Under the pieces are notes generated by a model. It did no database searches and was not told the DNA's origin. It saw only the letters and a list, made by a program, of their open reading frames with translations. A DNA stretch of 64,000 nt, from positions 13,884 to 77,883 of the forward strand of contig DASWCZ010000094.1 in the NCBI GenBank assembly GCA_036395755.1, written 5' to 3'. This DNA is from Thermoanaerobaculia bacterium. Its GTDB lineage: Bacteria; Acidobacteriota; Thermoanaerobaculia; UBA5066; Gp7-AA6. Shown in pieces: positions 4,197 through 34,909 of this stretch. Both the position numbers and the translations under genes were made by a program. Each line of letters starts with the position of its first letter. The first letter of the stretch is position 1.

Positions 4197-5126
4197 TCAT
4201 TCGGCGAGGACGAGCTTCGGTCGAATGAGAGCGATTCCGCGGGTCCCGATCGGGCTGACCTGTCCGAGCGCGACCATCTCGTCGGAAGGTCCGACGAGAG
4301 CCACCCAGTCGCCCTCTTTCGAAGCGACGCCGCGCGCCGGGATCGACTGCCCCTTGCGGATCTTCCAGGTCTCGAGCGAAGCCAGGCGGACGCGCTCGAA
4401 CGGAAAGTGAACGCGCGACAGCGGAACCGCATGCGGCGGTTCCAGGCGCTCGTCCGGCGCCATCTCCTCGAAGCGCTCGAGCGCGACGGCCTCGCTCGCG
4501 TGGAAATCCCCGATGCGCGTGCGACGCAGAGACTCGAGGTGCGCCCCGCAGCCGAGCTTCTCGCCCAGGTCGCTCGCGATCGAGCGGATGTACGTCCCGG
4601 ACGAGCAGGAAATCGAGAACGGCAGCTTCCCGTGGGACATTTCGCCGAAGGAGAGCTCCCGGACGCGGACCTTCTTCGGAATCACGGGAACGCTCTCGCC
4701 TTTTCGCGCCATCTCGTAGAACTTGCGTCCACCGACCTTTTTCGCCGAATACGGCGGCGGCGACTGTAGAAACTCGCCGCGAAAGGAGTCCGCGGCCGCC
4801 TCGACCTCTTCGCGCCGCAACCCGGCGGAGTCGCGCTCGGGACCGACGGCCTGGCCTTCGCGATCGAAGGTCGTCGTCGCGCGGCCGAGCCGGATGACCC
4901 CCTCGTAGGACTTGTCCATCAGCGTGAAAAAGCCTTGCAGCCTCGCCGCCTCCCCGGCGCACAGAAGCAGGAGGCCCGTCGCCATCGGGTCGAGCGTTCC
5001 GCTGTGGCCGATGCGGGGAAGCGAGAGCGCCCGGCGCACGCGTTCGACGACGTCGTGGGAGGTGAGCCCGGTCGGCTTGTCGAGGAGAAACAGGAAGCCG
5101 CGGCGAAACGGTTCGGCGGCTCTCAT
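4197..5126 (-). CDS. truB: tRNA pseudouridine(55) synthase
   Basis: LLLDKPTGLTSHDVV and HSGTLDPMATGLLLLC motifs (the latter carrying the catalytic Asp) identify TruB. The C-terminus has a PUA-like region. Confidence 0.93.
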   Translation of the reverse strand: MRAAEPFRRGFLFLLDKPTGLTSHDVVERVRRALSLPRIGHSGTLDPMATGLLLLCAGEAARLQGFFTLMDKSYEGVIRLGRATTTFDREGQAVGPERDSAGLRREEVEAAADSFRGEFLQSPPPYSAKKVGGRKFYEMARKGESVPVIPKKVRVRELSFGEMSHGKLPFSISCSSGTYIRSIASDLGEKLGCGAHLESLRRTRIGDFHASEAVALERFEEMAPDERLEPPHAVPLSRVHFPFERVRLASLETWKIRKGQSIPARGVASKEGDWVALVGPSDEMVALGQVSPIGTRGIALIRPKLVLAE

Positions 5127-5488
5127 GGCTCCTCTTCGCGTCCCGGCAGCACCCGTGAGAGCAGCTCGTCGATCCGCGCGCCCCGGTCGTAGGAGCGGTC
5201 CGGCTCGAAGAAGAGCTCCGGCGCGTAGCGCAGCCCGCAGCGCCGGCCGACCTCGCGCCGCAGAAACCCGGCCGCGCGCGCGAGCCCCGCGCCCGCACGG
5301 TCGAGGGCCGCTTCGTCGCCGTGGGCCGTGAAGAACACCCGGGCGGACTTCAGGTCCGACGGCATCTCGACGTCCGTGATCGTGACGGTCTTGACGTCCG
5401 GGTCGTGCGCTTCGATCAAGAGAAGACTCGAGATCTCCGCTCGGACGAGATCGGCAACGCGCTGGCTGCGGCGGGAATCTTTCTTCAC
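5123..5488 (-). CDS. rbfA: ribosome-binding factor A
   Basis: 121 aa with N-terminal RSQRVADLVRAEIS and a KH-like fold signature. Its 3' end overlaps the truB start by 4 nt, indicating translational coupling. Confidence 0.9.
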   Translation of the reverse strand: MKKDSRRSQRVADLVRAEISSLLLIEAHDPDVKTVTITDVEMPSDLKSARVFFTAHGDEAALDRAGAGLARAAGFLRREVGRRCGLRYAPELFFEPDRSYDRGARIDELLSRVLPGREEEP

Positions 5489-5502
5489 GCGGCCCTCCGA
5501 GC

Positions 5503-5603
5503 TGTCATTCCGAGGGCCGCAGGCCCGAGGAATCTCTTCCTCGGAAAGGGAGGGATCCCTCGCGGAGCCTGTCCCGAGCGAAGGCGAGGGACTCGGGAGG
5601 ACA
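5503..5603. repeat. copy A of a dispersed GC-rich REP/MITE-like intergenic element
   Basis: TGTCATTCCGAGGG...CCCGAGGAATC...GAGGGATCCCTCGCGGAGCCTGTCCCGAGCGAAGGCGAGGGACTCGGGAGGACA. It is nearly identical in architecture to 20021-20099 and, inverted, to 24241-24284. It fills the DUF503-rbfA intergenic gap. Confidence 0.7.
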
Positions 5604-5614
5604 TGGAGAGAGAC

Positions 5615-5902
5615 CTACACATGAATGAACTCATTCCTGTAATTCAGCAGCTCGCCGTCGAGATTCTGTTCCACGAAACTCAAGATCTTCTGCAGGAGGG
5701 CGTCGAGCGGCTTCTCATCCGGGCCGACCGCGGCGACCGCCAGCTCGGCTCTTTCCAGGAGATCCTGCCCGCCGACCTCCGATGCGGAGACCTCGAACTG
5801 GTTTCGGAGCCGACTCTTCAAGCTCTGGACGATCATCCGCTTTTCCTTCAGCCCGCGGCAGCCGGGCAGGTGAAGGTCGAAGACGGCGTAAGCGAGAACC
5901 AT
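5615..5902 (-). CDS. DUF503 family protein (YlxP-like)
   Basis: 95 aa small protein. Its position between infB and rbfA matches the conserved nusA-infB-ylxP-rbfA arrangement. Confidence 0.7.
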   Translation of the reverse strand: MVLAYAVFDLHLPGCRGLKEKRMIVQSLKSRLRNQFEVSASEVGGQDLLERAELAVAAVGPDEKPLDALLQKILSFVEQNLDGELLNYRNEFIHV

Positions 5903-5944
5903 GGTTCAGCGAAGCGGAGCGGGACGATTACGAGCCCGTCTTTC

Positions 5945-8773
5945 TCAGGCTTCCATCACTCCGGCGACCTTGTCGACCTGGTATGCCTCGATCACGTCGC
6001 CCACCTTGACGTCCTGGTAACGGTCGAGAGCGATGCCGCACTCGAAGCCCTGCCGGACCTCCGAGACGTCGTCCTTGAAGCGCCGCAGAGAAGCGACCTT
6101 CCCCTCGTAGATCACGCGGTTGTCCCGCAGCAGCCGGACCTGGGAAGAGCGTCCGATCGAACCCTCGGTGACGTAGCAGCCCGCCGCGATGCCGAACTTC
6201 GGGACCTTGAACGTGTTCCGGACCTCGGCGCGACCCCGGGCGACCTCTTTCAACGTGGGTTCGAGCAGTCCTTCCATCGCCTTCCGGATCTCGTCGGTCA
6301 CGTTGTAGATGATCGTGTGGAGGCGCAGCTCGACGCCGCTCTTGTCCGCCTCCGCCTCGGCCTTCTTCTCCGGCCGTACGTTGAATCCGACGATGATCGC
6401 TCCGGAAGCGGACGCGAGCAGGACGTCATTGATGTTGATCGCGCCGACGCCGACGTGGAGGAGCGAGACCTTCACCTTCTCGTTGGACAGATTCTTCAGG
6501 GCCTGCGACAGGACCTCGGCCGAGCCGGCGACGTCGGCCTTGACGATCAGAGGCAGCTCCTTGATGCGTCCTTCCTGGATCTTGTTGAAGAGCTGGTCGA
6601 GCGAGAGCTTCTGGCTCGCGGCCATCGCCTTCTCGCGTTCCCGAAGCTGGCGGAAAGAGGCGACCGAGCGCGCTTTGGCCTCGTCCGGAACGACCTGGAA
6701 CGTGTCGCCGGCCTGCGGAAGGTCCTCGAAGCCGGTCACCTCGACCGGCGTCGCGGGGCCCGCGTCCGTCAGGCGGTCGCCACGGTCGTCGGTCATCGAG
6801 CGGACGCGGCCGAACACCGATCCGGCGAAGAAGACGTCTCCGACGCGCAAGGTCCCGGACTGGACGAGCACCGTCGCCACGTTGCCCCGCCCCGCTTCGA
6901 CCCTCGCCTCGAGCACCACGCCCCGGGCCTCCTCGGCGACGGAAGCGGTCAACTCCTGCAGGTCCGCGACGATCAGGATCAGCTCGAGCAGCTGGTCGAT
7001 CCCCTGCTTTTTGAGCGCCGAGATTTCCGCCGAGGGAACCTCGCCCCCCCACGACTCGAGGAGGACTCCGTGGTCCGCAAGCTCTTTACGGACCCGATCG
7101 GCGTTGGCGTTCGCCTTGTCGATCTTGTTGATTGCGACCACGATCGGAACCTTCGCGGCGCGGGCGTGGTCGATCGCTTCGACGGTCTGCGGCATCACTC
7201 CGTCGTCCGCCGCGACGACGAGCACGACGATGTCCGTGGCCCGGGCTCCGCGCGCGCGCATCGAGGTGAACGCCTCATGACCGGGAGTATCGAGGAAGAC
7301 GATCGGCCGGCCATGGACTTCGACGCGGTAGGCCCCGATGTGCTGGGTGATGCCTCCCGCCTCTCCTTCGGCGACCTTGGTCTGGCGGATCGCGTCTAAG
7401 AGTGATGTTTTCCCGTGATCGACGTGGCCCATCACGGTTACGACCGGCGCGCGGGGCGACCGGGCGACCGTCGTCACCGGAGCAATTTCCGCGCTTTCCG
7501 GCGCGGTTCGCGCGAGCTCGAGCTCCTCTTCGAACGAGACGACCGCGGCTTCGACGCCGACCTCCTTGGCGATCTGGATGGCGGTCGACGCATCAAGGGT
7601 CTGGTTTACAGTCGCGAGGATTCCCCGCTGCATGAGCAGTCGCTGAATGTCTTTCGCGAGGACGCCGAGCTTTTCGGAGAGCTCCTTGACCGTGACGCCC
7701 TCCGACAGGAAGATCGGGCCGGTCGGCATCGGCTTCTTGAACTCGAGCAGCTTGCCCGAATCGTGCGCGCGCGTCGACTTGGCCGCGCGACGCAGCGCGG
7801 ACTTGGAGACCGGTTTCGCCTCGGCGACGGTCTCGACCTCTTCGGCCCCCTCCGTCTTCTCGATGAGCGGAAGGGTGATGTCGGAGTAGGTGTCTTCCTC
7901 GTACGCGCCGACGAACTCCCGCAGATCGACTTCGTCCGCGACGGTGATCTTCGGCTTCGCCCCGCGCTTCGCGGCGGGCTTCTTGGTGTCCTTCTCGTCT
8001 TCCTTCTTGCGTTTCGTTCCGGCGCGCTCGGCGACGAGCGGCGGGGCCGCGGGCCGAGCGGGGCCCATGCCCGGTCTCGCGCCCGGTCCGGGACGCCCGG
8101 CGAGTCCGGTCGGGCGCAGCGGTGCGCCGGCCGGCCGCATCCCCGGGCCGCCGGGAGTCGGGCGATAGACCGAAGGAGCCGGCCGCCCCGGGCTTCCCGA
8201 AGCGGGCCCCATCGGTCTCGACGGACCCGTCGGACGCATGGCGGGAGAACCCGGCCCGGCGCCGGCGCGGGCCATTGCCGGCGGGCCGCTCGGGCCGAGA
8301 GGTCTTCCCGCCGCAGGCCGCGGGGGAGGCAGCACGATCTTGCGGGGAAGAGCCGGCTTGGCGGGCGGCTCGGGTTCCGGCTCGGAAGGCACGACCGCGG
8401 TGCGGGCCGGTTCCGCCGGCTTCGCGCGGGCCTCCGGCGTCGTCGGCGGCGCAGGCGCGGCGGCGGGACCCGAAGCGGGACGGCGGACGACGGGCTCTGC
8501 CTCCGGCTCCGGACGAGCCGGGGCGGTCTTCTCCACGATCTTGATCCGGGAGAGCGCGCTCTTCTGTGGCCGGAAGGCCTTCGATTCGCTGTCCCGGACG
8601 ATCAGCTGTTTGGGGGCGTGGGTCTTGCCCTGGAGGATGGCCAAGACCGTCGACTCGTCGAGCGCCGCCTGCGGCGATTTGACGTCCACCCCGATCGACT
8701 GGAGCAGGAAGAGAACTTCCTTGCTCCCGATCCCCATCTGCGCGGCGAGCTCTTCGACCCGAATCTTTCCCAT
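5945..8773 (-). CDS. infB: translation initiation factor IF-2
   Basis: 942 aa with a Pro/Ala/Gly-rich N-terminal linker and a GTPase domain (VVTVMGHVDHGKTSLLD, DTPGHEAF, NKIDK). The C-terminal domains are conserved IF-2. Confidence 0.97.
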   Translation of the reverse strand: MGKIRVEELAAQMGIGSKEVLFLLQSIGVDVKSPQAALDESTVLAILQGKTHAPKQLIVRDSESKAFRPQKSALSRIKIVEKTAPARPEPEAEPVVRRPASGPAAAPAPPTTPEARAKPAEPARTAVVPSEPEPEPPAKPALPRKIVLPPPRPAAGRPLGPSGPPAMARAGAGPGSPAMRPTGPSRPMGPASGSPGRPAPSVYRPTPGGPGMRPAGAPLRPTGLAGRPGPGARPGMGPARPAAPPLVAERAGTKRKKEDEKDTKKPAAKRGAKPKITVADEVDLREFVGAYEEDTYSDITLPLIEKTEGAEEVETVAEAKPVSKSALRRAAKSTRAHDSGKLLEFKKPMPTGPIFLSEGVTVKELSEKLGVLAKDIQRLLMQRGILATVNQTLDASTAIQIAKEVGVEAAVVSFEEELELARTAPESAEIAPVTTVARSPRAPVVTVMGHVDHGKTSLLDAIRQTKVAEGEAGGITQHIGAYRVEVHGRPIVFLDTPGHEAFTSMRARGARATDIVVLVVAADDGVMPQTVEAIDHARAAKVPIVVAINKIDKANANADRVRKELADHGVLLESWGGEVPSAEISALKKQGIDQLLELILIVADLQELTASVAEEARGVVLEARVEAGRGNVATVLVQSGTLRVGDVFFAGSVFGRVRSMTDDRGDRLTDAGPATPVEVTGFEDLPQAGDTFQVVPDEAKARSVASFRQLREREKAMAASQKLSLDQLFNKIQEGRIKELPLIVKADVAGSAEVLSQALKNLSNEKVKVSLLHVGVGAININDVLLASASGAIIVGFNVRPEKKAEAEADKSGVELRLHTIIYNVTDEIRKAMEGLLEPTLKEVARGRAEVRNTFKVPKFGIAAGCYVTEGSIGRSSQVRLLRDNRVIYEGKVASLRRFKDDVSEVRQGFECGIALDRYQDVKVGDVIEAYQVDKVAGVMEA

Positions 8774-8782
8774 CGAGCTGGA

Positions 8783-10264
8783 CTACTCCTGAACGATCGT
8801 CTCTTCGGCCGGCGTCGAGGGCTCTTCCTCCTGAGCGCCGGGAACTTCTTCGACTTCTTCCGATTCTTCTTCCGATTCTTCTTCCGATTCCTCGGAGCGG
8901 GGCGAACGAATCTCCTGTTCCGCTGCGCGAGCCGCTTCAAGGAGCCTCTCGGCGGTCGCCGCGCCGATCCCGGGGATTTGGGAGAGTTCCTCCGCGCTCT
9001 TGTCGAGGAGTTCGGCGAGCGATCCGACCCCGGCTTCCGCGAGCTTCTCCGCGGTCTTCCCGCCGATTCCGGGGATCTCGGACACGGGGGTCTGCTTCAA
9101 ACGAGACGCCTCGAGCATTCGCGTCAGAGCTTCGGCGACCTCGCCCTTGACCTCGGTCTCCCCCTTGATCTCGATCTTCAGACCGATCAAAGCCGAGGCG
9201 AGCCGCACGTTCTGACCCTTCTTGCCGATCGCGAGCGAGAGCTGGTCGTCTTCGACGACGCAGTCGAGGCTCATTGTTCCGTCTTCATGGTGGATGGGCG
9301 AGACCCGGGTGATCTTGGCCGGAGCGAGAGCGTTCTGGGCGAAGGTGATCAGGTCGTCGGAGTAAAGGATGACGTCGATCTTCTCGCCGTGGAGCTCCCG
9401 CATGATCGACTGGACCCGGCTTCCGCGCATGCCCACGCAGGCTCCGACCGGATCGACGTCGCGCTCGCGCGAGCGCACCGCGACCTTCGCTCGTTCGCCC
9501 GGCTGGCGGACCGCCCCCTTGATGACGACCGTGCCGTCGTAGATTTCGGGCACTTCCATCTCGAAGAACCGGATCAGGAGCCTCGGGTCGGTCCGAGAAA
9601 GGACGAGCTGCGGACCCTTCGGGTTCCGGTGCACGTCGTAGAGGATCGATCGGATCCGCTCCCCCTGGCCGTAGCGCTCGGCGCGCGATTGCTGATCGCG
9701 CGGGATGATCCCCTCCGTCTTGCCGAGATCGACGATCATGTCGCCGCGCTCGAACCGTTTGACCGTTCCGCTCATGAGCTCGCCGATCTTCGGGAAGTAC
9801 TCGTTGTAGATGTTGTCGCGTTCCGCCTCCCGGACCTTCTGGTAGAGGACCTGCTTCGCGGTCTGGGCGGCAATTCGTCCGAGCCCCATCGTCTCCCGAT
9901 AGACCCGGACTTCGTCGCCGAGAACGACGTCGTCGACCTCGGTCGCGGGCTCGCCTTCGGCGCCTGGCCGCAGAACGCGGACCTCTCCCCGCGTCCCCTG
10001 CTTTGCGACCAACTCGCGGGCTTCCTCCAGAAGGACCTCCGGCGGCGGATCCTCCGATTCGGTGTCGAGCTCCGCGACGACCGTGCGCGGCGAGTACACC
10101 GTCATTGCCCCGGTCTGGCGGTCGATCAGCGTCACCATCGCCTTGTCGTGGTAGAACTTTCTCGCCGCCGAGGACATGGCTTCCTCGAGCGCGCCGAACA
10201 TCTTTTCGGTGTCGATGTCTTTCTCCCGCGAGACCTGTCGGATCACCGACGGATCGATGTTCAT
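8783..10264 (-). CDS. nusA: transcription termination/antitermination factor NusA
   Basis: 493 aa with S1 and KH domains and two C-terminal HhH repeats (IPGIGGKTAEKL..., IPGIGAATAERL). It lies immediately upstream of infB and ends in an acidic SEESEEESEEESEE tail. Confidence 0.95.
   Translation of the reverse strand: MNIDPSVIRQVSREKDIDTEKMFGALEEAMSSAARKFYHDKAMVTLIDRQTGAMTVYSPRTVVAELDTESEDPPPEVLLEEARELVAKQGTRGEVRVLRPGAEGEPATEVDDVVLGDEVRVYRETMGLGRIAAQTAKQVLYQKVREAERDNIYNEYFPKIGELMSGTVKRFERGDMIVDLGKTEGIIPRDQQSRAERYGQGERIRSILYDVHRNPKGPQLVLSRTDPRLLIRFFEMEVPEIYDGTVVIKGAVRQPGERAKVAVRSRERDVDPVGACVGMRGSRVQSIMRELHGEKIDVILYSDDLITFAQNALAPAKITRVSPIHHEDGTMSLDCVVEDDQLSLAIGKKGQNVRLASALIGLKIEIKGETEVKGEVAEALTRMLEASRLKQTPVSEIPGIGGKTAEKLAEAGVGSLAELLDKSAEELSQIPGIGAATAERLLEAARAAEQEIRSPRSEESEEESEEESEEVEEVPGAQEEEPSTPAEETIVQE
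8855..8890. repeat. three perfect tandem copies of the 12-nt unit TTCTTCCGATTC inside the nusA 3' coding region
   Basis: The exact 12-mer occupies 8855-8866, 8867-8878 and 8879-8890. On the coding strand it encodes the SEEESEEESEEE acidic tail of NusA. Confidence 0.9.
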
Positions 10265-21289: not shown

Positions 21290-21364
<75 letters not shown>

Positions 21365-21378
21365 ATTGTTCGAGGCGG

Positions 21379-21454
21379 AGGCGCTTAGCTCAGCTGGGAG
21401 AGCGCTACCTTCACACGGTAGAGGTCAACGGTTCGATCCCGTTAGCGCCTACCA
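21379..21454 (+). tRNA. tRNA-Val (anticodon CAC)
   Basis: Acceptor AGGCGCT/AGCGCCT, anticodon loop TTCACAC, T-loop TTCGATC and encoded CCA. Confidence 0.9.
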
Positions 21455-28668: not shown

Positions 28669-30234
28669 ATGAACACATCCGTCGCGATCCCGATCGCGAC
28701 CGCCGCCATGGCGGTCGTCTTCGCCGTGGTCGCGTATTTCCTGCTCAAGAGGCGGGTCGCTCGCGAACGCGCTTCGATCCGTCTGGAGGCGGACCGTGTG
28801 CTGGCGGAAGCGACCCGGGCATCCGAAGCGCGCCTCCGCGAAGCGGCCATCGAGGCGAAAGAGAAGGTTCTCGCCGCCCAGGTCGAGTTCGACAAGACGA
28901 TCCAGATCCGCCGCCAGGACGTGGCGGCGTTGGAGAAAAGGGTCGCCCAGAAGGAGGAGAACCTCGACCGGAAGCTCGCCCAGCACGAGAAACGGGATGA
29001 GGAGTTCGCCCGCAAGGAGCGCGCCTTAGCGGACGCCCTGAAGGGGGTCGAGAACGCCCGCGCCGAGGCGGAGGGGCTGATCGAGGAGCAGCAGAAGCGC
29101 CTCGAGCAGATTTCGGGTCTGACGGCCGCCGACGCGAAGCGGGACCTGATCCGGTCGATCGAGAACGAAGCCCGAGTGGAAGCCTCCGGACTCATGCGAC
29201 GCATCGAGGAGGAAGCGGTCGAGCAGGCGACGCAGAAGGCCCGCCACCAGATCGGCATGGCAATCCAGAGACTGGCCTCCGACACCGTCGTCGAAGCGAC
29301 CGTCTCGGTCGTCGAGCTTCCGTCGGACGACTTGAAGGGGCGGATCATCGGACGCGAGGGGCGCAACATCCGGGCGCTCGAAGCGGCGACCGGTGTGGAC
29401 TTGATCATCGACGACACTCCCGAGGCGATCGTCATCAGCGCGTTCGAGCCGATCCGGCGCGAGGTCGCCCGGCTGGCGTTGGAAAAGTTGATCGTCGACG
29501 GTCGGATCCATCCGGCGCGGATCGAAGAGGTCGTCGAGAAGGTCCGCTCGGAGCTCTGGGAAAAGATCCGGCAGGAAGGGGAGGCGACTGCTCTCGAGTT
29601 CGCGATCCCCGACCTTCACCCCGAGCTCATCAAGCTGCTCGGGCGTTTGAAGTTTCGCACCTCGTACGGCCAGAACGTGCTTCAACACTCCAAGGAGGTC
29701 GCGTGGCTCGCGACGAGCATGGCCGGCGAGCTCGGGGCCAAGACGGAAATTGCCAAGCGCGCCGGGCTGCTGCACGACATCGGAAAGGCGATCGACCGCG
29801 AGCAGGAAGGAACCCACCTCGAGCTCGGCCGCGAGGTCCTGAAGAAGTTCGGGGAGGCCGACGACGTGATCCACGCGATGGAGTGCCATCACGGCGACTA
29901 CGAGCCGCGCTCGCTCGAAGCCGTTCTCGTCAACGGCGCCGACGCGCTCTCCGCGGCGCGTCCCGGAGCGCGCCGCGAGATTCTTGAGACGTACGTCAAG
30001 CGGCTCGAGAAGCTCGAGCATATCGCCGACGGCTTCAAAGGAGTTCAGAAGGCGTTCGCCATTCAGGCGGGCCGGGAGTTGCGCATCGTCGTCGAGGCGA
30101 ATCGCGTCACGGACGACGAGGCTCTCTGGCTATCGCGCGACATCGCCCGCAAGATCGAAGCGGAGCTTCAGTATCCCGGTCAGATCAAGGTCACCGTGAT
30201 CCGGGAAACCCGATCCGTCGAGTACGCCCGGTAG
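28669..30234 (+). CDS. rny: ribonuclease Y
   Basis: 521 aa with an N-terminal TM helix, coiled coil, KH domain ([15 protein letters not shown]) and HD domain ([13 protein letters not shown]...LLHDIGKA). The C-terminus is conserved. Confidence 0.95.
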
Positions 30235-30243
30235 CCCGGAAGG

Positions 30244-31026
30244 ATGAACATCCTCTTCGTCGGCGACGTGGTCGGCTCTCCCGGCCGGCGGGCCCTCGAC
30301 CGGGCGCTCCTCCCGCTCATCGACCGGAAGAAGGTCGACTTCACGATCGTCAACGTCGAGAACGCAGCCGGAGGGTTCGGCTTGACGATCGAGCTCTTCG
30401 AAGAGCTCTCGAAGCTCCCCATCGACGTCTTCTCCTCCGGCAACCACATCTGGGACAAAAAGGAGATCTACGCGGTCCTCGACTCCTCCGATCGGTTGCT
30501 CCGCCCGGCCAACTACCCGCCGGGCAACCCCGGGCGCGGATCGACCGTGCAGTCGACCGCTTCGGGGGTGCCGGTCGCGGTGCTGAACCTCCAGGGGCAG
30601 GTGTTCATGCCGGCCCACGCGGATTCTCCGTTCCGCGTCGCGGACGAGGAGCTCGCGCGGTTGAAAGAGGTCAAAGTCATCGTGGTGGACATGCACGCCG
30701 AGGCGACGTCGGAGAAAGTGGCCATCGGCTGGTACCTGGATGGCCGGGTCTCGGCCGTCCTCGGCACCCATACCCACGTTCAGACGGCCGACGAGACCGT
30801 GCGTCCGGGGGGCACCGCGTACCTGACCGACGCGGGCATGACAGGCGCCTACGAAGGCGTGATCGGCTTCGCGCGTGAACGCATCATCGAGAAGTTCCTG
30901 GCGCAGACCCCCAAGTCCTTCGAGACGGCCAAGCGCGACATCCGCCTTTGCGGCGCGCTCGTCGCGGTGGACGAGACGAGCGGTCGCGCCACCGGGATCG
31001 AGCGGATCGCGGTGAAGGTGGAGTGA
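30244..31026 (+). CDS. TIGR00282/YmdB-family metallophosphoesterase
   Basis: MNILFVGDVVGSPGR...VNVENAAGGFG...GNHIWDKKE and GTHTHVQTADE are YmdB-family motifs. The gene lies immediately downstream of rny as in Firmicutes. Confidence 0.85.
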   Translation: MNILFVGDVVGSPGRRALDRALLPLIDRKKVDFTIVNVENAAGGFGLTIELFEELSKLPIDVFSSGNHIWDKKEIYAVLDSSDRLLRPANYPPGNPGRGSTVQSTASGVPVAVLNLQGQVFMPAHADSPFRVADEELARLKEVKVIVVDMHAEATSEKVAIGWYLDGRVSAVLGTHTHVQTADETVRPGGTAYLTDAGMTGAYEGVIGFARERIIEKFLAQTPKSFETAKRDIRLCGALVAVDETSGRATGIERIAVKVE

Positions 31027-31877
31027 GGTTCGGGAGCACCGTGCCGAGAGAGAAACTGTCGGCGATCGTCACGAGCTTCAACGAAGCCATCAACATCAGG
31101 GAGTGCCTCGAAAGCGTCACGTTCGCCGACGAGGTGCTCCTCGTCGACTCGTTCTCAGCCGACTCGACTCTCGATCTCGCCCGGCAGGTCCCCGGCGTCC
31201 GAATCCTCCAGCGCGAGTACTTCGGGTCGGCGGCGCAGAAGAACTGGGCGATGGACCAGACCGTCCACCCGTGGGTCCTGATCGTCGACGCGGACGAGCG
31301 CGTCACGCCCGGTCTGGCGCGGGAGATCCAGGATCTGCTGGAACGCGGGCCGGAGGCGAGCTTCTACTCAATCCGGCGTCGCAATCTCTTTCTCGACCGG
31401 CTCATCCGCCATTCGGGCTGGTCCACGGACAAGGTCGTGCGCCTGCTGCGGCGCGGCGCCGCGCGCTATCCGCGGCGGAGGGTCCATGCCGACATCCGGC
31501 CCGAAGGCCCCGCGCCGACGCTCAACAGTTCGCTGCTCCATTACACGTTCCGGTCGCTCGGACAGTATCTGGAGAAGCTCCACCGGTATGCGGAGTGGGG
31601 CGCCGCGGACGCCTATCGCCGGGGAAAGGACTCCGGCGCGCTGCAGCTGTTTTTCCGTCCAGCCTGGAGGTTCGTGCGGACGTACGTGTTCCAGGCGGGT
31701 TTCTTGGACGGCCGCCACGGCCTCGTACTGTGCATGCTTCAGGCTTACGGAGTCTTCCTGAAGTGGGCGAAGCTCTGGGAGTGGCGCCGGTTCGATCACA
31801 ACGGGTGGAAATTCGAGCTCCCCGCATACGATGATTCCGAAGAAACCTGGGGAGGAGCGGCGACCGCCGCCGAGTGA
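31023..31877 (+). CDS. GT2 glycosyltransferase (LPS core KdtX/WaaE-like)
   Basis: SAIVTSFNEAINIRECLESV...VLLVDSFSADST...VLIVDADERV GT-A motifs. A GTG start overlaps the ymdB-like stop; an alternative GTG lies at 31041. Confidence 0.75.
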   Translation: MRFGSTVPREKLSAIVTSFNEAINIRECLESVTFADEVLLVDSFSADSTLDLARQVPGVRILQREYFGSAAQKNWAMDQTVHPWVLIVDADERVTPGLAREIQDLLERGPEASFYSIRRRNLFLDRLIRHSGWSTDKVVRLLRRGAARYPRRRVHADIRPEGPAPTLNSSLLHYTFRSLGQYLEKLHRYAEWGAADAYRRGKDSGALQLFFRPAWRFVRTYVFQAGFLDGRHGLVLCMLQAYGVFLKWAKLWEWRRFDHNGWKFELPAYDDSEETWGGAATAAE

Positions 31878-31882
31878 CGTCG

Positions 31883-32362
31883 ATGTTCCGGCGAGAAAGA
31901 CCTTCGCTTCCGCTCGGTCCCGGTGACGAAGCTCCCGACTTCGCGCTGCCCGATTCGACGGGTGCCGTGCAGCGTCTCTCCGACTTCCGCGGGAAGACGG
32001 TCGTCCTCTGGTTCTATCCGAAGGCGCGCACTCCCGGGTGAACGATCGAAGGCCGCGGGTTCCGCGACCTCGCTGGCGATTTCAAGAAGGCGAACACCCA
32101 GATTCTGGGGATCTCCTTCGATCCCGTGAAGACGAACGCCGCCTTCGTCCGGAAGGAGGGCTTTCCTTTCCCGCTCCTCTCCGACGAGCGGCGTCGAGTC
32201 GGCCTAGCGTATGGCGCCTGCGGCTCGCCCGATGCGCGCTCCGCGCGGCGGATCTCCTACGTGATCGGCGGGGACGGCCGCATCGAGAAGGCTTATCCCG
32301 CGGTGTCGCCGGCGTCCCACGCGCGCGATGTGCTCGCCTTTCTCGCCGAGAGCCGCGCATAG
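31883..32362 (+). CDS. bcp: Bcp/PrxQ-type peroxiredoxin with in-frame TGA (32039-32041) at the peroxidatic-Cys position; candidate selenoprotein (or pseudogene/base-call error)
   Basis: One reading frame from ATG 31883 to TAG 32362 gives LPDSTGAVQRLSDFRGKTVVLWFYPKARTPG-U-TIEGRGFRDLAGDFKKANTQILGISFDPVKTNAAFVRKEGFPFPLLSD..., colinear with E. coli Bcp. The TGA aligns with the Cys of TPGCT. The ORF caller split it into 31883-32041 and 32126-32362. Confidence 0.6.
32047..32072 (+). other. SECIS-like stem-loop 17 nt downstream of the in-frame UGA of bcp
   Basis: CGAAGGCCGCGGGUUCCGCGACCUCG has an inner 4-bp GC stem and an outer helix with one mismatch and one bulge. The GGUUC apical loop starts 17 nt after the UGA, within the reported bacterial SECIS window. 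Confidence 0.4.
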
Positions 32363-33399
32363 AACTCGCGAGCTTTCCGCGCGAACACCTCCGGACTGAA
32401 CTCGAGCGCCCGTCGGCGGCCGAGCTCGCCCATTCGGAGCCGCTCGCCCGTCGAATCGTGGAGACGCCGGAGCGCCGGCGCGAGGTCGGCTGCGCTCCCG
32501 ACGACGATCCCCTCGCGTCCGTCGGTCACGAGGTCGAGGACTCCCGGCATGTCCCGGGCGACGACCGGGACCCCCGAGGCCATCGCTTCCAGGAGCGCCC
32601 GCTGACCCTGCTCCGATCCGGAGGCGGTGAAGAGAAACACGTCCATCGCGCGGTAGAGCTCCGGCAAGCCTTCCTCCTCGTATCCCGCCCAGAAATTCCG
32701 CCCGGCCGTTCCCAGGGATGCGGCGTGCGCCTCGAGCTCCGGCCGCAGCTCTCCCTTTCCTACGTGAAGGAGAACCGCGTCGGAAGCGAGCGCTTGCGCC
32801 GCCTCGATGGCTTCGCGATGGCCGCGACCCTCGGCGATCTTCCCGACGGTGCCGACGACGAAGCTTCCGTCGGGCACCCCGAGAGCGCGAAGACGTTCTG
32901 GCCGTCTCGCGTCCGGTCGAAACCGCTCCCGATCGACGACCGGCGAATGAACCGGGCCGGTCCGGCCCGACCGAGAGGCGATCGTGCGGTTGGCAAACGC
33001 AAAAGAGTCGGTCGAGCGAAAGAGGGCGCGCGAAAAAACGTCGCGGCGCAGGGCGTCGGAGTGGTGGAGGGTGCGGGCGAGGAGAACGTCCGTGCCGCGC
33101 ACGGCCGCCGCCGCGACGAAGTGGTCGTGGGAAAGGTGGCAGTGGACGACGTCGTAGGTCTCCCGGAGGAGAGTCTCCCTGACGAGCCGGACGTCGTGCC
33201 AGTAGCCGGTCGGGGTCCGCGATCGGGATAAGAGCGGCCGCGCCCAGCCGAGAGGCAGGAGCCGCCGGGCGAGGGGCGTGTCACGAACAAAGCCGAACTG
33301 CGCTTCCACGCCGGCCGCGACGAGCGCCGCCGTCTGTTGGAAGACGACCGCCGCCGCGCCGGTCCATTTCTCGCCGGTCACCAGGTGCAGGACGCGCAT
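32293..33399 (-). CDS. GT4-family (group 1) glycosyltransferase
   Basis: GT-B retaining-type motifs ([41 protein letters not shown]). It is convergent with bcp and the ORFs overlap by about 70 nt. Confidence 0.8.
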
Positions 33400-33432
33400 G
33401 AAAAGAAGGTATCAGCAGTAAACTTCGCCGCG

Positions 33433-33723
33433 ATGGCCGTGGATCCGGAGCTGCTCGCGATTCTCGTCTGCCCCAAGACCAAGGGCCCGCTCGAGCTCGT
33501 GGACTTGGACGACGAGGCGCGCCGAGCCCTCGTCGAGAAGTACCGCGAGAAATTCCGCGACGAGGAGCCTGTGGTCACCCAGGGTCTCCTGTCCAGGACG
33601 GCGGACCTCGTGTATCCGATCGTTTCCGACATTCCGGTCATGCTGATCGACGAGGCGCTGCCGGCCTCCGCGGGGTCTGATCCCCGCAGGGGGTCAGACC
33701 CCGACTCGAGACGGAAGACGTAA
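33433..33723 (+). CDS. Trm112/YcaR-like (DUF343) small protein
   Basis: [22 protein letters not shown]...[10 protein letters not shown] matches the UPF0434/Trm112 family, which is often embedded in LPS gene clusters. The ATG at 33433 is preferred over the longer ORF. Confidence 0.7.
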
Positions 33724-33889
33724 GACGAAGAGGCCATTCATCCGCAGAGCGCTCTTTCCTCTCCTCGTTCTCTTCGCCCTCCTTTCTTCGCAGATTTCGA
33801 TCGGCTACGGTCTCTTCATCCTCCTCGTCGCGGGCTGGCTCGGCACGGGATGGCGGCTCGAGAGCGTTCGGCGCGCGCTGGTTCATCCC

Positions 33890-34909
33890 TTGACCGCTCT
33901 CGCGGGCGTCTTCGCGCTCCTCGTCGTGATGTCGGTCGTCTTCTCCGTCGATCCCGGCGCGAGCGTCCGGGCGCTCCCGAGCCTCTCACTCTTCCTCCTG
34001 CTGCCGATCTCGATCGACCTGGTGGACAGTCTGCGGCGAGCCCGGGCGATTCTTCTCGCGGTTGCGGCGAGCGGGACGGCGATGGCGCTCTTGGGTCTCG
34101 CCCAGCTCGCGCGCGGAGGACCGAATCTGCAGAGCCGGATTCACGCGAATCTGTCCCACTACATGACGCTCTCGGGACTCACCCTTCTCGCCGGATGCGT
34201 CCTCCTCGCATTTCTCTTCGAGGGCCGCGGCGGGCAACGGTGGCTGGGGGTCGCCGCGCTCGCCCCGTTCGCGGCGATGATCTTCACGCTCACGCGCGGC
34301 GCCTACGTCGGAGCCGTCGTGGCCGTCGCCGCCTATCTGGCTGTGCGCCGCCCTCTCGGGCTCCTCGTCCTCGCACCGGCGCTCGTGGCGATCTTCCTTC
34401 TGCTGCCCGCCGGCGTCCGCGGGCGCGCGGCGTCGATCGCCGACCCGACGGACCGCACCAACCGCGACCGGATTGCAATGGCGAACGCCGGAAGGCGGAT
34501 GATCGTCGACCGCCCGATCTTCGGCCTCGGTCCCGAGCTCGTGAAGCCGTACTACACCCTCTATCGCGACCCGGACGCGCCCCGCTGGAGAGTGCCGCAT
34601 CTCCACGACAACGTCCTCCAGATCGCGGCTGCAAACGGAGTCTTCGCCGCGGCCGCGTACCTCGGCCTTCTGGCGCTCTTTTTCGCGCGAGCCGCCGCGG
34701 TCCTGCGGAGGGAGCGCACCGCCGGTCGAGGCCTCATCGCCGCGGCGACATTCCTCGGCGTCGCGGCCGCGACGGTCGCGGGCCTCTTCGAGTACAACTT
34801 CGGCGACAAGGAAGTGTTGATGGCCACGCTGCCGCTTCTCGCTCTCCCGTTCTGTCGCGGGATGACGGAATCCGAAGAGGGCGGGCGTTCGCCCCGGATA
34901 CAATCGTGA
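33890..34909 (+). CDS. O-antigen ligase/polymerase family membrane protein (Wzy_C domain)
   Basis: Multiple TM helices and the Wzy_C-like segment FTLTRGAYVGAVVAV. The ORF caller starts at TTG 33890, but the TM-rich in-frame sequence (KRPFIRRALFPLLVLFALL...) extends back to about 33725 without a canonical start. Confidence 0.65.
   Translation: MTALAGVFALLVVMSVVFSVDPGASVRALPSLSLFLLLPISIDLVDSLRRARAILLAVAASGTAMALLGLAQLARGGPNLQSRIHANLSHYMTLSGLTLLAGCVLLAFLFEGRGGQRWLGVAALAPFAAMIFTLTRGAYVGAVVAVAAYLAVRRPLGLLVLAPALVAIFLLLPAGVRGRAASIADPTDRTNRDRIAMANAGRRMIVDRPIFGLGPELVKPYYTLYRDPDAPRWRVPHLHDNVLQIAAANGVFAAAAYLGLLALFFARAAAVLRRERTAGRGLIAAATFLGVAAATVAGLFEYNFGDKEVLMATLPLLALPFCRGMTESEEGGRSPRIQS

Follow-up and report, generated by a model that had tools for sequence, protein, structure and literature searches.

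The 64-kb stretch of DNA analyzed here (the window) carries an intact gene for a Bcp/PrxQ-type peroxiredoxin with a UGA at the codon of the peroxidatic cysteine. From comparison with homologous genes and from an RNA hairpin that follows the UGA, the gene very probably encodes a thioredoxin-fold peroxiredoxin of the Bcp/PrxQ type whose peroxidatic residue is predicted to be selenocysteine (Sec).

The peroxiredoxin frame starts with ATG at 31883 on the plus strand, ends with the TAG stop codon at 32360 to 32362, and contains exactly one in-frame stop, the TGA at 32039 to 32041, with no other disruption (Table 1). The initial annotation had described one frame broken solely by this TGA, and the sequence agrees. 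As it had also pointed out, the gene appears as two fragments in the mechanical list of open reading frames (31874 to 32041, 55 amino acids, and 32126 to 32362, 78 amino acids), although the first piece is listed from 31874. The ATG is located 5 nt past the TGA stop codon (31875 to 31877) of an upstream GT2 glycosyltransferase gene, and the protein start MF(R/G)R is kept in the related loci L001 and L086. The read-through product contains the motifs WFYPKARTPG*TIEGRGFRD, GISFDP, and LLSD. With Cys substituted at the TGA, the product matched Pfam AhpC-TSA (PF00578) at 5.9e-33 from residue 13 to 136, covering profile positions 1 to 123 of 124, and the top matches in the PDB were BCP structures (5enu, 1.2e-24; 5epf; and 3gkk/5iiz), which bears out the earlier claim of an end-to-end Bcp-type product. 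When the two halves were searched singly, they matched contiguous parts of the same profile (1 to 40 and 44 to 123), thereby placing the TGA at the position of the peroxidatic Cys, the catalytic Cys of the TPGC motif, as had been proposed. The active site read through the TGA is WFYP46KART50PGU53. The best NCBIfam model was Bcp NF006960 (PRK09437) with 111.8 bits, below its equivalog cutoff of 140, followed by PrxQ NF053650 with 100.5 bits, below its cutoff of 260; the BCP/PrxQ placement therefore rests on best matches and not on equivalog status.

Table 1. Features of the peroxiredoxin gene and its predicted recoding element in the window
Feature	Positions	Strand	Details
Bcp/PrxQ-type peroxiredoxin CDS	31883..32362	+	159 residues, predicted Sec (U) at residue 53; from reading frame and Pfam match
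Pro46-Thr50 codons, PxxxTxxU active-site motif	32018..32032	+	P46 and T50 invariant in 85/85 Sec and Cys forms
UGA codon predicted to be read as Sec, replacing the peroxidatic Cys of PxxxTxxC	32039..32041	+	TGA in 66, TGC/TGT in 19 at the aligned codon
Extended hairpin	32047..32072	+	Outer CGA/UCG helix, bulged A32050; -12.0 kcal/mol
Core hairpin, putative SECIS	32051..32069	+	5' arm 32051-32058, GUU loop 32059-32061, 3' arm 32062-32069
Conserved active-site Arg123 codon (RRISYVI)	32249..32251	+	R123 invariant in 85/85 sequences

The state of this codon was compared among 85 Bcp-type genes from the window and 83 loci, 80 of which came from a one-genome-per-species scan and three from metagenome contigs. 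The search pattern for the loci was placed upstream of the TGA codon and introduces no bias toward TGA. The comparison of orthologues, which had been recommended as a check, found TGA in 66 of the 85 genes and a Cys codon in the other 19. The hosts of the TGA forms are mostly Acidobacteriota (Thermoanaerobaculia, Polarisedimenticolia, and Blastocatellia), with some Eisenbacteria and Myxococcota. One of the TGA forms is found in L001, a 28-kb ENA contig that carries the protein P0025 and shares synteny with the window; both have the gene order rny, ymdB, GT2, the split peroxiredoxin gene, a convergent GT1 gene, trm112, and wzy, with TGA at the same codon. In a neighbor-joining tree, the window sequence and L001 to L006 form an all-Sec clade nested in an all-Sec clade of 37 sequences, and the state changes between Sec and Cys about 15 times over the whole tree. 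On both sides of the TGA, the genes stay conserved as coding sequence.

The hairpin downstream of the UGA had been described with one mismatch and one bulge and with a loop that starts 17 nt after the UGA, inside the 16- to 37-nt range of bacterial SECIS elements. The RNA of the window folds in this way, with a C.A mismatch at 32053/32067 in the core and a bulged A, at -12.0 kcal/mol for the 26 nt from 32047 to 32072 and -8.9 kcal/mol for the 19-nt core. The spacing of 17 nt between the UGA and the apical loop was confirmed, and the hairpin itself begins 10 nt past the UGA. The lower stability of the core, -8.9 kcal/mol, is due to the C.A mismatch of the window copy (GGC in place of GGU), which is common to L002, L003, L004, L018, and L027; most relatives have a U-A pair there. 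Beyond the core, only one further outer pair of the extended helix is supported among relatives, 32050/32070, which is paired in 52 of 65 distinct sequences. A recent review (PMC13188914) quotes the following constraints for bacterial SECIS elements: an apical loop of 3 to 9 nt with G in the first two loop positions, an upper stem of 4 to 16 bp, a distance of 16 to 37 nt from the UGA, and a minimum free energy of at most -7.5 kcal/mol. The window hairpin lies within all four, with a GUU (or GGUUC) loop, an upper stem of 5 perfect bp or of 8 bp with one mismatch, the 17-nt spacing, and a folding energy of -8.9 to -12.0 kcal/mol. In its context of 67% GC, the single-sequence fold was no more stable than shuffled sequence (z = -0.64), and the significance of the hairpin thus comes only from its relatives. 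No SECIS family of Rfam was matched in a scan of the window at gathering thresholds, and a permissive scan of 31980 to 32160 gave only chance matches (E > 0.7); because no Rfam family matched this element, the result says nothing either way.

Among the relatives, the TGA forms share the consensus UGA ACG nnn GAR GGU (U/C)GC GGG UUC CGC GAC CUC, which forms a stem of 8 to 9 bp with a GUU loop. Across the 66 sequences, 92.1% of the stem cells are paired, compared with 37 to 53% in controls whose 3' partners were slid by 1 to 3 columns. Compensatory changes were found at two pairs. A G-C pair is replaced by C-G in ten sequences, which have Ser UCC or Thr ACC at position +5 together with Arg CGG at +8, and a U-A pair is replaced by G-C in three sequences, where GGG is accompanied by GCC or GCU and Asp is changed to Ala. 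RNAalifold recovered only the inner 5 bp, and the full 9-bp helix was assessed by explicit pair counts in its place.

Because the sequence of the stem also codes for the conserved peptide EG(C/R/S)GFRD, part of its conservation reflects the protein, and the Cys-form homologues are the essential control for this constraint. At three sites, one synonymous codon is fixed in the TGA forms alone, namely GGG (65 of 66), UUC (65 of 66), and GGU (48 of 66). Of these, GGU is a rare codon at this GC content and is needed for pairing with the A of GAC. Among the 11 high-GC Cys forms, these sites are occupied by GGC, GGA, or GGG, by a mixture of Gly and Ser codons, and mainly by UUU, and the difference in codon usage between them and the TGA forms is significant (Fisher p of about 5e-6 to 7e-5). 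All eight stem pairs are formed in 48 of the 66 TGA forms, compared with five to seven of the eight in the 11 high-GC Cys forms (Mann-Whitney p = 1e-6). The same difference is seen between near-identical proteins: the TGA form L059 has GGU...GAC, whereas its Cys sisters L075 and L048 have GGC, and L048 has CGG at +8.

A covariance model was then built on 59 TGA forms, with the window and L001 to L006 held out. The model scored the window at 57.6 bits (E of about 1e-15) and L001 to L006 at 54 to 62 bits, compared with 8.8 to 41 bits for the 19 Cys-form genes. Together with the four published constraints, this result answers the SECIS fit that had been listed as a check. Judged from these comparisons of sequences, the hairpin is under selection at synonymous sites, covaries, and is specific to the UGA forms. 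Another match of the model in the window, within nusA at 9452 to 9503 on the minus strand (23.5 bits, GGCGAACGAGCGAAGGTCGCGG...CGCGAC), was rejected as chance, since the site lacks a TGA and the reading frame of nusA is unbroken.

Two departures from the common pattern were observed. In four TGA forms (L054:10130-10177, L074:10136-10183, L077:4912-4959, and L082:10136-10183), residue +5 is Ile, Asn, or Gln, the canonical stem is broken, and the RNA folds into a shifted hairpin, which in L074 is UUGGAUUC/GAGUCCAA with a 7-nt loop, CGGGAUA. A Cys-form relative, L078, keeps a fold similar to that of the L074 type. The shifted hairpin may represent either a SECIS element in another register or a remnant. 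In addition, the metagenome contig L087 (893 to 940, protein P0007) has TTA (Leu) at the Sec codon; its hairpin, GGTCGCGGGTTCCGCGACC, is perfect, and the covariance model gives it 56.6 bits. This TTA reflects either an error at one base in assembly or sequencing, or an allele that was inactivated recently.

By analogy with the known bacterial mechanism, the hairpin would act as a SECIS element that recruits SelB with Sec-tRNASec, and the UGA would be read as Sec in place of a stop. The decoding genes were searched for by tblastn with SelA, SelB, and SelD of E. coli, SelA of Solibacter and other Acidobacteriota, and a partial SelB of Solibacter against the window and the 83 loci. Over the 64 kb of the window and about 1.3 Mb of sequence flanking the related loci, no selA, selB, selD, or tRNA-Sec was found, as expected for so small a sample, and ARAGORN detected no tRNA-Sec in the window and 60 loci. 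The only SelB-like match in the window was infB, encoding IF2 (5945 to 8773, minus strand), and was rejected; outside the window, the SelB queries gave a weak stretch of 26% identity in L083. A weak match of an acidobacterial SelA (P0190) in L062 (31% over 116 amino acids, E = 1.6e-4) is probably unrelated. SelA is abundant in other Acidobacteriota (Bryobacteraceae). In a protein database search with Solibacter SelA, the best 120 matches were all 72 to 100% identical to the query; the few named organisms among them were Bryobacteraceae or Acidobacteriia, and none of these 120 matches provided a link to the Thermoanaerobaculia genomes of interest. The Sec trait has also been reported for Acidobacteria (PMC1794560). 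These data document the Sec trait for other members of the phylum.

Three other explanations of the UGA were considered. The one that survives best, although we regard it as improbable, is that the UGA is recoded, but not, or not only, as Sec, either with Cys delivered by SelB on a tRNASec-like tRNACys of the selC* type or through an acidobacterial allo-tRNA acting as an opal suppressor. Both selC* tRNACys with opal anticodons and acidobacterial allo-tRNAs, which are proposed nonsense suppressors, are documented (PMC5389517), and a SelB-dependent Cys route would share the hairpin, so that the comparative data fit Sec and Cys alike. However, selC* was reported in Firmicutes, Thermodesulfobacteria, Nitrospirae, and Proteobacteria and not in Acidobacteria, and every genome containing selC* also had the full Sec apparatus (PMC5389517). 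Moreover, no such tRNA was found in the window or the flanks, and maintaining a UGA and a hairpin for mere Cys would be unparsimonious, given that a single step leads to TGC and that the state has switched about 15 times. A related idea, that the UGA and hairpin are decoded in two ways, as Sec when selenium is at hand and, when it is lacking, as Cys or some other residue inserted by a suppressor resembling tRNASec, seems similarly doubtful to us; if it were true, a housekeeping Bcp peroxidase would switch its chemistry with the selenium supply.

The initial annotation had left room for an inactivating mutation or a base-call error, in which case TGC would have become TGA and the protein would end at residue 52. 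TGC is one base from TGA, and the TTA of L087 shows that single-base variants or errors occur at this codon. Nevertheless, 66 genes assembled independently of each other carry the same TGA, among them the gene of the syntenic L001, and this excludes a private mutation or base-call error. The coding conservation on either side of the TGA, the Pfam matches of both halves, the otherwise undisrupted frame, and the purifying selection on the hairpin at synonymous sites, seen in TGA forms only, also argue against a pseudogene, and we assign this explanation a negligible probability. A reading of UGA as Trp or Gly throughout the genome (genetic code 4 or 25), under which the W in homologues called by JGI would be right, is just as implausible, because three genes of the window terminate at TGA (ymdB, straight after matching its Pfam profile in full, 253/253, infB, and the upstream GT2 gene), the acidobacterial genome with 67% GC is unlike the known code-4 and code-25 lineages, and a peroxidatic site occupied by Trp would have no catalytic activity. 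Elsewhere in the window, TGA serves as a normal stop codon. No other in-frame TGA candidate was found in the 64 kb, and two coding-like cases proved to be ordinary gene ends, those of a MoaD/ThiS-like gene (...GG stop) and of the gene before coaE. Reading of the UGA as Sec remains by far the most probable explanation.

Next, we examined the type of enzyme that such a protein would be. At position +5 the window protein has Arg58, and the resolving Cys of the CxxxxC arrangement, a feature that is variable within the BCP/PrxQ subfamily, is lacking. Of the 66 Sec forms, 30 have Cys at +5, 19 have Arg, and 11 have Ser, with Arg in the clade of the window. The only Cys of the window protein, C113, was rejected as a resolving residue; it is Ala in 25 of the 66 Sec forms and is absent from L004 and L006, the two closest species-level relatives, which have no Cys anywhere in the protein. 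With Arg at +5 and closest relatives that are devoid of Cys, the clade of the window most likely uses a 1-Sec mechanism that depends on an external thiol reductant, as these residues suggest and as the initial annotation had claimed. In this mechanism, with chemistry as in other peroxiredoxins, Sec53 activated by Thr50 and Arg123 would reduce peroxide and become a selenenic acid, and the oxidized Sec would then probably be regenerated directly by a thioredoxin- or glutaredoxin-type thiol reductant external to the enzyme.

Since the +5 codon is itself part of the putative SECIS stem, substitutions at the resolving position are coupled to RNA pairing. A change from Cys UGC to Arg CGC converts a U.G pair to C-G, and Ser UCC at +5 comes with a compensating Arg CGG. 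The RNA structure and the enzyme mechanism (2-Cys-like or 1-Sec) would therefore constrain each other. A SECIS element inside a conserved protein motif is an example of overlapping constraints, in which the covariation extends across the boundaries of codons and amino acids.

The peroxiredoxin gene belongs to a conserved cluster at 28669 to 34909 of the window, consisting of rny, ymdB, GT2, the peroxiredoxin gene, GT1 (minus strand), a trm112-like gene, and a wzy-like gene. The convergent GT1-family glycosyltransferase gene (32293 to 33399, minus strand) overlaps the 3' end of the peroxiredoxin gene by 70 nt (32293 to 32362), and the same 70-nt overlap is found in L001 (10249 to 10318). Elsewhere in the window, a truB-(rbfA)-infB-nusA block is located at 4197 to 10264 on the minus strand, and two adjacent tRNA-Val genes with anticodons GAC and CAC are located at 21290 to 21454 on the plus strand. 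In some related loci, the Bcp gene is followed 5 to 8 kb further downstream by a second, different peroxiredoxin paralogue (LYFYPKDFTGG*TLEAHNF), whose peroxidatic codon is an in-frame TGA in L016 (17567 to 17569) and L023 (15862 to 15864) and TGC or TGT in L020, L021, L024, L026, and L031. No convincing hairpin could be defined from the two TGA copies, and the window has no copy of this paralogue.

The closest relatives in protein databases fall into two groups. The first consists of 105-amino-acid proteins that begin just past the Sec position (P0005, P0008, and P0025), and the second of full-length proteins with W, or in one case L, where Cys belongs. W is present at the active site of P0002 to P0006 and P0016 to P0039. 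The DNA of P0002 (locus L086) has TGA at the W codon, thereby indicating that this W is a translation-table artifact. Split calls are found in L001 (9839 to 10318), L002, and L003, where ENA and some JGI callers give products of 52 and 105 amino acids. Public gene calls for the family are thus systematically wrong, with the W verified for P0002 and L086. Because the gene is split or mistranslated and the Sec form is the majority in our sample (66 of 85), inventories of peroxide defense and counts of the selenoproteome of soil Acidobacteriota in public databases are likely understated or wrong. The results also suggest selenium dependence of a housekeeping peroxidase in these bacteria.

Finally, we compared the window gene with known systems. 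Sec-containing TxxU peroxiredoxins are an already established family, of which the window gene is a member and the representative of a large acidobacterial clade; it changes nothing in what is known on Sec decoding or peroxiredoxins. Zhang et al. (2006; PMC1794560) described twelve TxxU members, for which five Cys-to-Sec events were inferred, and the 2026 review lists the family as Prx, PF00578, TxxU (PMC13188914). A full-text literature search found no paper that pairs Thermoanaerobaculia with selenocysteine. The Bcp-like members of the 2006 set come from Geobacter metallireducens, Anaeromyxobacter dehalogenans_1, Syntrophobacter fumaroxidans, and Syntrophus aciditrophicus (PMC1794560). The TxxU family shares with the window protein the AhpC/TSA fold, the Bcp-like pattern FYPK..T.GUT.E, and U at the peroxidatic position. 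Over 152 residues, the window protein shares 43% identity with that of G. metallireducens (FYPKDSTPGUTKEANGFRD), which is likewise without Cys at +5. Compared as proteins with the deltaproteobacterial TxxU members, the window protein differs in its lineage (Acidobacteriota, Thermoanaerobaculia-like metagenome-assembled genomes), in the Arg at +5 of its clade, and in that the Sec form is the majority among its close homologues in the sample.

The Cys-type BCP/PrxQ proteins, which gave the best structure and NCBIfam matches (E. coli Bcp, NF006960; Xanthomonas campestris, 3gkk/5iiz; Burkholderia, 5enu; and M. tuberculosis, 5epf), share the PxxxTxxC motif, the conserved Arg, a length of about 150 to 160 amino acids, and the thioredoxin fold with the window protein, but have Cys at the peroxidatic site and in many cases a resolving Cys at +5. 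PrxU of Eubacterium acidaminophilum (NF040737) is also a peroxiredoxin with Sec at the peroxidatic position. However, it belongs to another subfamily (AhpC/Prx1-like, with a model of 233 positions), and the window protein, which scores 44.3 bits against the equivalog cutoff of 270, is not a member. The Prx-like thiol:disulfide oxidoreductases (UxxC/UxxU) have a PF00578-related thioredoxin fold and Sec in a redox motif (PMC13188914), as predicted for the window protein, which in contrast is of the TxxU type, with TPGU-TIEG and no Cys at +3.
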